From Candidatus Saccharimonadales bacterium (GTDB lineage: Bacteria > Patescibacteriota > Saccharimonadia > Saccharimonadales > UBA4665): a stretch of DNA of 64,000 nucleotides. The stretch is taken from positions 2,550-66,549 of the forward strand of contig DATIJK010000041.1 in assembly GCA_035478715.1 (NCBI GenBank), written 5' to 3'. The position numbers were made by a program, and so were the translations under genes. This document shows positions 29,236-29,915 of this stretch, in pieces. The stretch's first letter is position 1; every line of letters starts with the position of its first letter. Under the pieces are notes generated by a model that was given only the letters and a program-made list of their open reading frames with translations, was not told where the DNA came from and did not search any database.

Positions 29236-29423
29236 TAGACTCAGCCAAGATACACAAATATTTCTAGATTCCATCATCCCTGAACAGCGCGGGATCTAGC
29301 GATGCATATAAAGTATTTTGCTAGATTCCTGTCAGTTCGGGATTAATGGCCAATCTGAAAATGAAAGTCTTTCGTTTTAGCTCATACATTCCATATGTAT
29401 TGAATTGCGAAAGACTCTGTTAG

Positions 29424-29452
29424 TTGTAAAAACTTCGGTAATACGCTATATT
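29424..29452 (+). promoter_or_regulatory. Candidate promoter for tRNA-Val
   Basis: TTGTAA, 17-nt spacer, TATATT, ending about 20 nt before the tRNA 5' end. Confidence 0.45.
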
Positions 29453-29471: not shown

Positions 29472-29548
29472 GGGCGCTTAGCTCAGTTGGCTAGAGCACC
29501 TCGTTTACACCGAGGGGGTCGGGGGTTCGAGCCCCTCAGCGCCCACCA
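29472..29548 (+). tRNA. tRNA-Val (anticodon TAC), CCA encoded
   Basis: Acceptor GGGCGCT/AGCGCCC, D-arm GCTC-AGTTGGCTA-GAGC, anticodon stem CCTCG/CGAGG with loop TTTACAC, T-arm GGGGG-TTCGAGC-CCCTC. Confidence 0.9.
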
Positions 29549-29556
29549 CTTAAAAT

Positions 29557-29578
29557 CCCCACTTCGTGTGGGGTTTTT
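29557..29578 (+). terminator. Intrinsic terminator after tRNA-Val
   Basis: CCCCAC-TTCGT-GTGGGG followed by TTTTT. Confidence 0.7.
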
Positions 29579-29590
29579 AAGTGGTTGTTG

Positions 29591-29710
29591 CCCGGGTTCG
29601 AACTCACGACCACCGGGGTCGGGGTGAGACCCGCCAGTGGCGGGTCGCAAGGCAATCTTCCGGAGCAAGCTTGCTTGCTGCCGTGAAGTTGCGAGCCTGC
29701 CGGAGGCAGG
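29591..29710. ncRNA. GC-rich multi-hairpin segment of unknown identity (candidate structured RNA or relic)
   Basis: About 67% GC by my count in an otherwise moderate-GC region. Perfect hairpins: GACCCGCC-AGT-GGCGGGTC (29628-29646), GCAAGC-TT-GCTTGC (29665-29678, nested in GGCA/TGCC and GCAA/TTGC helices) and CCTGCC-GGA-GGCAGG (29696-29710). Confidence 0.3.
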
Positions 29711-29732
29711 TCGAGCCCCTCAGCGCCCACCA
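29711..29732 (+). repeat. Exact 22-nt copy of the tRNA-Val 3' end (TCGAGCCCCTCAGCGCCCACCA)
   Basis: Identical to 29527-29548. No matching 5' acceptor strand or D/anticodon arms upstream, so it is a fragment and not a second tRNA. Confidence 0.9.
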
Positions 29733-29840
29733 TTCGACTCGCTTTGCTCGCTCATGGTAAACAACGAGTAAGAAAGGCGAGTTTTTGATTACTGCGTTAG
29801 TATTATGTGTGTCGAATGACCTTGAGCTTGTCGAAGGGCC
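29733..29840 (+). repeat. CCA-abutting element, copy A (about 108 nt)
   Basis: Starts right after CCA. Shares with copy B (55658-55776) the motifs TCGA(C/T)TCG, C(G/A)CTCATGGTAAAC, GACC(T/C)TGAGC and GTCGAAGGGCC. Its termini can pair (TTCGAC/GTCGAA; CTCATGGT/ACCTTGAG). Confidence 0.55.
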
Positions 29841-29915
29841 CTAAACAATCCCTACTTTGTGTGGGTTCTCACAATCAAAAGTAAATAACGATAATTCGGA
29901 TGGTACAATCACTGT

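Follow-up and report, generated by a model that had tools for sequence, protein, structure and literature searches.

The window analysed here is a stretch of 64,000 nucleotides (nt) from a Candidatus Saccharimonadales bacterium (contig DATIJK010000041.1, positions 2,550 to 66,549), whose genome (G000) amounts to 1.49 Mb in 104 contigs and is 91% complete. It contains an intact tRNA-Val(UAC) gene and, directly behind it, a terminator, a diverged antisense piece of the tRNA, a partial sense copy of the tRNA and, interrupting that copy, a conserved structured core. We call this assembly the module (Table 1). The last 22 nt of the tRNA gene, TCGAGCCCCTCAGCGCCCACCA, are present twice with 22/22 identity (B1 and B2) at a spacing of 184 nt, as the first-pass annotation of the window had reported; by an arithmetic estimate, about 1e-4 exact 22-mer pairs are expected by chance in 64 kb. 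The terminator is also found again further downstream. Its core AATCCCCACTTCGTGTGGG (29554-29572) agrees with AATCCCTACTTTGTGTGGG (29847-29865) at 17 of 19 positions, compared with a chance expectation of about 2e-3 for such a pair inside 900 nt (also an arithmetic estimate). Copy 1 scores as intrinsic-terminator-like on both strands, with a hairpin at 29557-29573 and a T run; in copy 2 the stem is weakened, the T run is broken and no terminator-like score was obtained, so that its earlier description as a degenerate second copy was correct.

Besides these two pairs, a third short repeat was found. The 10 nt GGGGTCGGGG, comprising the variable loop and the T-stem 5′ strand (29515-29524), recur 10/10 ahead of the core, implying that the second copy starts in the variable loop, at about position 44, comprises the rest of the tRNA 3′ half and is broken at the T-loop by 86 nt. 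The interrupting sequence (29625-29710) stands where G53-T54 of the T arm belong. When 29514-29614 was compared with its own reverse complement, 72% identity over 103 nt was obtained, revealing that the tRNA 3′ half is also present as a diverged antisense copy. No open reading frame was found in 29549-29710. The segment between the 22-nt repeats had been described as holding no gene, which is right for open reading frames but overlooks the conserved structured RNA-like element inside it. Downstream of B2, an element of ~108 nt that is separate from the module lies between B2 and the old terminator.

Table 1 Features of the tRNA-Val(UAC) locus, in positions of the window
Feature	Position	Strand	Basis or remark
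Promoter-like site TTGTAA-17-TATATT	29424..29452	+	Only sigma-70-like match ahead of the module
Intact tRNA-Val(UAC), CCA encoded; attL-like junction	29472..29548	+	ARAGORN; Rfam tRNA (RF00005), 66.5 bits
Repeat copy 1 (B1): T-loop 3′ part, T-stem 3′ strand, acceptor 3′ strand, CCA	29527..29548	+	22/22
Terminator hairpin 1, bidirectional	29545..29585	.	18-nt arms, 94% complementary; stem reaches further so that the ACCA of the tRNA pairs with TGGT
"antiT": diverged antisense copy of tRNA-Val acceptor 3′ strand, T arm and variable loop	29582..29611	+	Self reverse-complement match
"A" copy: variable loop and T-stem 5′ strand, GGGGTCGGGG	29615..29624	+	10/10 with 29515-29524
Three-hairpin core (P1, P2, P3)	29621..29718 (C41:32170-32267)	+	Covariance model R1, 108.4 bits, E 2.3e-22
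Repeat copy 2 (B2); attR-like junction	29711..29732	+	22/22; most likely the original tRNA-Val 3′ end
~108-nt CCA-abutting element, separate from the module	29733..29840	+	Also present behind the CCA of six or more further tRNAs of G000
Degenerate terminator 2, presumably the native tRNA-Val terminator	29840..29872	+	29847-29865 agrees 17/19 with terminator 1

The core, ~90 nt long, is a conserved structured RNA-like element. RNAalifold gave three abutting hairpins, P1 with 10 pairs, P2 with 17 and P3 with 8, the pairing of P3 including the first two T-loop bases of the tRNA 3′-end copy that follows the core, and compensatory double-sided changes occur in 25 of the 35 pairs. When the trimmed alignment was scored, 97.9% of the cells held a standard pair, compared with 79.4% in shuffles and 27-45% in slid controls, and the covariation score was 0.506, compared with 0.158 and at most 0.08, respectively; none of 500 shuffles attained the observed values of pairing or covariation. 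Two G-U pairs are nearly fixed, each being present in 24-29 of 31 sequences, implying that the folded strand is the tRNA-sense strand, either as RNA or as single-stranded DNA. P1 is flanked by the invariant unpaired blocks GGUGA and GCAAG. The first-pass annotation had named a functional RNA at the second copy as an outcome that would speak against a plain attachment-site (att) scar, and the covarying core found here is RNA-like.

The core does not belong to the RNA families with which it was compared, and we could assign its fold to no known class. In a search of the tRNA-Val region against Rfam 15 at E up to 10, the tRNA alone passed; the rest had E >0.2 and lay well under the gathering scores. 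Covariance models in Rfam 15 for transfer-messenger RNA (tmRNA), permuted tmRNA, RNase P, Y RNA-like and ribozyme families gave no match to the core, nor did the Rfam tRNA model. Folded alone, the element is predicted to close into a junction of several helices, with the antisense segment paired to the 3′-end copy (−84.2 kcal/mol, z-score −4.6). For a transcript reading through from the tRNA, a giant tRNA-like fold using B2 is predicted (z −7.4), and in the minimum-energy fold of this RNA the 5′ acceptor strand of the tRNA pairs with B2. We also noticed that the anticodon-stem/variable-arm sequence GGTGGCTGTGCCGCAAGG of tRNA-Leu(GAG) (e.g. L010:1776-1860) fits a loose pattern composed of the P1 3′ strand and GCAAGG; this likeness is probably a coincidence.

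The module is not confined to tRNA-Val. In the same genome, the series is found again on contig C48, where all the tRNA-derived parts correspond to the adjoining tRNA-Lys(CTT): behind the terminator stand the 3′ half of this tRNA in antisense, its variable loop and T-stem repeated, a related insert and finally its 3′ end a second time. Covariance model R1, which was built from 31 copies, found exactly these two cores in the genome, the one in the window and one at C48:4603-4700 (74.1 bits). By BLAST with 29579-29735, 56 of 151 genomes of the same order gave a match, and about 42 of them remained once those matching solely in the 22-nt tRNA end had been set aside. A genome often has several copies (1 to 8, at different tRNAs), and nearest-neighbour cores seldom share a genome, with the reservation that genome labels were partly merged through shortened names. 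When the species representatives of GTDB were scanned with an exact pattern, at least 119 loci were found, nearly all of them titled Candidatus Saccharibacteria, Saccharimonadales or Saccharimonadia, and a search with R1 in a 151-genome sample of the phylum yielded only genomes of the same order plus one weak match. The exact core pattern had no match in the viral contigs of IMG/VR, and a viral origin was set aside on this ground. These counts rest on the matches listed and on metagenome-assembled genomes. The module family is specific to Saccharimonadales, and its members sit at the D, anticodon and T loops of partial tRNA copies beside an intact copy of the same tRNA. We found no description of such a family in the open-access literature.

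A second core, unrelated to the first, AT-rich and also ~90 nt long, was seen in G000 within the same architecture: a tRNA and a terminator, then an antisense segment, the insert and a copy of the tRNA end. This core is present at tRNA-Lys(TTT), tRNA-Phe(GAA), tRNA-Arg(CCT), where it occurs on both sides, and tRNA-Pro(CGG), the sites being C29:55594-55790, C50:44931-45024, C1:37095-37194, C1:37439-37525 and C29:2222-2310. Beyond G000, 9 of 150 genomes of the order matched it as well.

Among the matches listed, 125 cores could be sorted by their position relative to a tRNA, and two mirror-image arrangements were found that involve more than 30 tRNA species. In type 1, to which the tRNA-Val locus belongs, the core lies less than 130 nt 3′ of an intact tRNA on the same strand (50/125); in type 2 it lies directly 5′ of one (44/125); the others are in arrays, at contig edges or with no tRNA near. 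The antisense segment of type 1 is specific to the adjoining tRNA, to which it aligns over 14 nt or more in 40 of 43 loci, typically with 75-90% identity, and B2 agrees with the last 24 nt of that tRNA at 20-23 positions in 29 of 43. Type 2 loci begin with a 5′ partial copy of the tRNA, from position 1 to x, which leads straight into the core, so that the direct repeat stops exactly there; the values of x are 15-24 (D loop), 36-37 (anticodon loop) or 45-56 (variable/T region), and a short spacer with a TATAAT box stands ahead of the intact tRNA. In some loci, such as L101 and L105, two cores occupy two different loops of one partial copy.

In both arrangements, the unit has a fixed length. The repeat period has a median of 185 in type 1 (32 of 37 within 172-197) and of 183 in type 2 (36 of 41 within 171-199), it is constant irrespective of x, and the tRNA-Val locus with 184 is typical. 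Units with two cores measure 254-274 and are thus longer by ~88 nt, about one core, implying together with the period that the non-core part of the unit is ~95 nt. We also considered selection for G-U pairing in the long hairpin formed by the tRNA half and the antisense segment and rejected it, as the G-U excess is weak (71 vs 44) and the antisense segment mostly drifts to A/T.

Which of the two tRNA ends is the original one could be read at tRNA-Lys(CTT). The sequence GGTTATGCTTAAA follows the intact tRNA-Lys(CTT) in the module-free genome G003, and follows the second 3′-end copy in G000 and at L039 and L041, implying that at this tRNA the distal copy is the original end and that the proximal end and its terminator arrived with the module. 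By analogy, B2 is most likely the original 3′ end of tRNA-Val. The distal flank of tRNA-Val is broken by the CCA-abutting element, and the 17/19 likeness of the two terminators there suggests that the tRNA-end/terminator segment of the module was itself copied from a tRNA-Val locus of this lineage. As an additional observation, the second tRNA-Lys(CTT) end contains a 26-nt hairpin insert, TCCGGCCGTCCGCAGGACAGCCAGGC, which copies the tRNA's own 5′ leader, CCGGCCGGCCGCAGGACAGCC (C48:4380-4443 and C48:4735-4775).

Comparison with related genomes, which the first-pass annotation had proposed, brought out module-free versions of the same tRNA loci in relatives of the same genus and of the same family. 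At tRNA-Lys(CTT), none of five same-genus genomes aligns beyond the tRNA, and the two flanks that were read (G003 and G001) are plain and without the module. At tRNA-Val(UAC), G002 has a plain and unrelated terminator, and the module part downstream of the tRNA aligns in only 3 of 40 relatives (G034, G009 and G029). The clearest pair is G009, which is filled, and G013/G010, which are empty: they share a tRNA-Val of 100% identity and the gene downstream of it, and in G009 the interval between the two is longer by ~350 nt, made up of one module and a decayed second module. Such comparisons of occupied and empty sites are made at genus or family distance and do not fix the exact boundaries at tRNA-Val; the hisC-like gene downstream in the window has no close orthologue in the family.

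The surroundings of the modules did not point to a protein that moves them. Within 2.5 kb of 143 core loci, no family of open reading frames recurs except spurious antisense frames and syntenic housekeeping genes; no recombinase recurs there, nor does a DEDD recombinase, TnpB or IscB gene. One locus, L103, shows a larger arrangement. There, a large serine recombinase of 569 aa with Resolvase, Recombinase and Zn-ribbon domains lies behind tRNA-Gln(UUG), cargo comes next, and ~4.2 kb downstream come an antisense segment, a 10-nt A copy, a core and a 22-nt copy identical to the tRNA-Gln end, so that the ends of L103 are the same as those of the mini-modules. Homologous large serine recombinases are encoded in 91 of 151 genomes of the order, and a tRNA gene is present in 21 of 30 of their loci. 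In the closest homologues, the 3′ end of the recombinase gene abuts, on the opposite strand, a tRNA gene of almost any identity, and in several extended loci the match to the recombinase tail continues onto the tRNA antisense. For the recombinase of L103 (1888-3597), the open frame itself reads GFEPP over the tRNA antisense.

On these grounds we consider it rather likely, though far from certain, that the 184-bp unit is a miniature, non-autonomous and protein-less integrative module located in the T-loop region of tRNA-Val(UAC), with a core that acts as a structured RNA or a folded single strand. The very small integrating unit that the first-pass annotation offered as one option is close to this reading. 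The footprint of integration into a tRNA gene, which it had recognized, stands insofar as an intact tRNA lies at one junction and a displaced end at the other; the locus is, however, not a plain att scar. Read 5′→3′, the order at the locus would then be the host promoter with the 5′ two-thirds of the tRNA, a module-borne B1 with its own terminator, the diverged antisense 3′ half, the 10-nt copy of the variable loop and T-stem, the 86-nt three-hairpin insert, the displaced original B2 and the native flank.

Such an arrangement could arise as follows. A unit of ~183 bp, most simply a small circle, would carry, besides the core, a stretch that matches the tRNA on one side of a loop, and would recombine with the tRNA gene inside this stretch in the manner of Campbell. 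Recombination would regenerate a working tRNA with a terminator (type 1) or a promoter (type 2) supplied by the module, and would leave a truncated tRNA copy fused to the core. The reaction would be catalysed in trans, candidates being the tRNA-targeting large serine recombinases of the order or RecA. Selection may act on the core as a folded single strand of tRNA sense, most likely an RNA arising when transcription from the tRNA promoter reads through, and the core may serve the propagation or persistence of the element. A single minicircle scheme of this kind would yield both arrangements, a period that is constant whatever the insertion point, and the new terminator or promoter box.

Several results weigh against this reading. 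The minicircle scheme does not explain the antisense segment, the preference for loops or the conservation of pairing in the core, and these three point to a role for a folded single strand; moreover, conservation of pairing rather than of sequence, as indicated by the covariation, is unlike what a double-stranded recombinase site would show. At the tRNA-Val locus, no sigma-70-like site was found between terminator 1 and the core. The tree of 164 cores showed no grouping by tRNA (92 changes vs 94.7 after shuffling) or by arrangement (34 vs 37.6), so that recent spread and old inheritance look alike and the insertions cannot be dated. Scans of metagenomes for a sister allele of the locus or an empty site gave no match. 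As for the catalyst, no core was found in 18 other serine-recombinase elements searched to ~17 kb; the link seen in L103 may therefore be an accident of nested insertions, and we rejected these elements as the general parent of the modules. Presence of the recombinase barely tracks presence of the core (29 of 42 core-bearing genomes vs 61 of 108 others), and G000, as far as its 91% completeness goes, encodes no large serine recombinase, only one tyrosine recombinase, and has no match to the reverse transcriptase family PF00078.

The most serious alternative, which we regard as possible but unlikely, is that the core is a host-serving small RNA gene riding on tRNA transcription. The core would be released by tRNA processing enzymes, and the partial tRNA copies would be processing or stability signals which, together with the complementary segment, scaffold the core, rather than scars of recombination. 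The very strong covariation and the strand-specific G-U pairs fit this well, as do the constant co-orientation of the core with the tRNA, its restriction to loops, which keeps the tRNA arms, and the predicted folds of the element alone and of the read-through transcript. B2 also stays near-identical while the antisense segment decays to ~77%, and an element without its own promoter must share that of the tRNA. A host gene should, however, be less patchy: no module was found at the corresponding tRNAs in genomes of the genus and in most of those of the family, and only 56 of 151 genomes of the order were matched, with 1 to 8 copies each at different tRNAs and without tRNA-specific lineages. Furthermore, an unrelated second core shares the architecture, terminator 1 should halt most transcription, and a DNA period that stays fixed whatever the insertion point, together with the two-core units, is hard to explain by an RNA function. 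This reading and that of a miniature integrative module are not mutually exclusive. Rather improbable is that the core fused to sense and antisense tRNA segments is an active guide- or bridge-like RNA or a small ribozyme that directs its own insertion into tRNA loops; insertion would then proceed by RNA-guided recombination or by reverse splicing after recognition of a tRNA hairpin loop.

The other explanations fare worse. A large prophage or island classically leaves direct repeats of a tRNA 3′ end, and L103 does have a 4.2-kb occupant between equivalent ends, but that the repeats here enclose ~160 nt of junk left after deletion, the near-complete decay product proposed in the first-pass annotation, is contradicted by the 183-185 bp unit at dozens of tRNAs, on which independent decay would not converge, by the covarying structure (25 of 35 pairs), which would not survive, and by the mirror-image 5′ form, which would not arise; we hold it to be quite unlikely. 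To the same low degree we credit mobility at the RNA level, in which the core would enter exposed loops of the tRNA or pre-tRNA by ribozyme-like reverse splicing or ligation, a complementary DNA would recombine with the tRNA gene, snap-back synthesis would make the antisense segments, and the transcript length would set the fixed unit. This would suit the use of D, anticodon and T loops only, the second cores in other loops of the same pseudo-tRNA, the inverted segments adjoining sense segments, and the non-core part, which at ~95 nt is near the length of a pre-tRNA; its support is nevertheless entirely indirect, as G000 has no reverse transcriptase, no ribozyme family matched, and no full-length tRNA gene containing a core was seen. 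Least credible of all is the idea that the locus is a tRNA-Val gene of split, permuted or intron-containing form whose maturation depends on the second 3′ end, or that it holds part of a tmRNA or of RNase P RNA. The minimum-energy read-through fold is indeed predicted to pair the 5′ acceptor strand with B2, but the canonical tRNA-Val is complete and has a terminator to itself, and tmRNA (C50:24798-25192) and RNase P RNA (C1:12760-13112) were found elsewhere in G000. An intron-containing or split gene was rejected since partial copies always lack one acceptor strand, those of type 1 being without positions 1-43 and those of type 2 without the acceptor 3′ strand. Two further candidates were also rejected: a diversity-generating retroelement, because substitutions between the tRNA half and the antisense segment hit all bases rather than being A-specific and because PF00078 is not matched in the genome; and a long target-site duplication, because the type 2 repeat halts at the tRNA 5′ end in most loci and in type 1 nothing repeats past the second terminator.

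Integrative elements and islands of tRNA genes are driven by tyrosine or serine integrases, are bounded by attL/attR repeats of the tRNA 3′ part, and use crossover sublocations in the T loop or the anticodon loop. The module would work like such a tRNA-targeting integrative element, though without an encoded integrase. It shares with them the intact tRNA regenerated at one junction with the displaced end at the other, the T-loop breakpoint, a presence that varies among relatives and, in L103, one full-size relative with a large serine recombinase. It differs in being a 184-bp unit with neither integrase nor cargo whose length is fixed over many tRNAs, in having a mirror form that duplicates the 5′ part and supplies a promoter, in also entering D and anticodon loops, and in carrying an antisense tRNA segment and a covarying core placed exactly at the junction. 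Like MITEs (miniature transposable elements with inverted repeats), hairpin elements of the repetitive extragenic palindrome (REP) and palindrome-associated transposable element (PATE) types, and cis-mobilisable mini-islands, it is small, multicopy, protein-less and hairpin-rich and is presumably moved in trans. Unlike MITEs, it has no terminal inverted repeats and no short target duplication; its ends are tRNA-derived direct repeats whose extent, 15-57 nt, depends on the insertion point, its flanks of 10-57 nt are tRNA-specific, and it is bound strictly to tRNA loops in a co-oriented manner.

More distant likenesses concern RNA. The eukaryotic CORE-SINEs (short interspersed nuclear elements) also combine a tRNA-derived part with a conserved structured central domain in many copies, whereas the module is bacterial, has no detected partner of the long interspersed element type or reverse transcriptase, and its copies stay beside the parent tRNA gene. 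Archaeal non-canonical tRNA introns and split or permuted tRNA genes are likewise interrupted at D, anticodon and T loops, but the interrupted copies here are truncated, the intact copy is always adjacent, a bulge-helix-bulge context is not evident, although no search aimed at it was made, and the lineage is bacterial with an RNA-based RNase P. The bridge RNA of IS110 is ~177 nt long, and the guide of the TnpB/IscB omega RNA comes from the flank of the element. In the module, too, a conserved scaffold of ~90 nt at the element end is fused to target-derived sequence, and its RNA would total ~150-185 nt; it differs in that no DEDD recombinase, TnpB or IscB recurs, that segments derived from the target, sense as well as antisense, flank the scaffold on either side, and that the intact target is next door. 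To our knowledge, no described system has a fixed unit of ~184 bp together with mirror forms, specificity for D, anticodon and T loops and a covarying core.

Saccharibacteria have tiny genomes with single-copy tRNA genes, and yet many of these genes are flanked by dead partial copies fused to a structured element of ~90 nt. If they are mobile, the modules, at ~184 bp, would be among the smallest integrating units known to us, and would occupy essential genes without lethality by supplying a replacement end and terminator or a promoter. If the core RNA is active or has a protein partner, it would represent a new RNA family present throughout the lineage. There is a smaller chance that the modules form a new class of RNA-directed element; were the core to direct its own insertion, this would be a class of mobile RNA elements targeting tRNA loops, found only in Saccharibacteria and having at least two unrelated cores that share one strategy. 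Concrete, testable clues to the mechanism, for which no described system accounts, are the fixed length of the unit and its specificity for loops. For annotation, the partial tRNAs and repeats may be mistaken for prophage scars, split tRNAs or assembly errors.

Some minor features of the locus and genome were also observed. The ~108-nt element behind B2 begins exactly after the CCA and reads TTCGACTCGCTTYGCTCGCTCATGGTAAACC ... GAGTCGAATGACCCTGAGCTTGTCGAAGGGCC; its other sites in G000 are C1:20933-, C1:23850-23964, C29:2084-2113, C29:9489-9601, C52:9666-9784 and C50:63716-63745. At tRNA-Gly(GCC) (C50:63746-63822), the 3′ end of the tRNA and the start of the CCA-abutting element are duplicated ~1.6 kb away (C50:62130-62190), which may represent a small islet bounded by tRNA-end repeats. 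Directly upstream of the promoter-like site of tRNA-Val, nested inverted repeats lie at 29366-29416 and 29271-29349.

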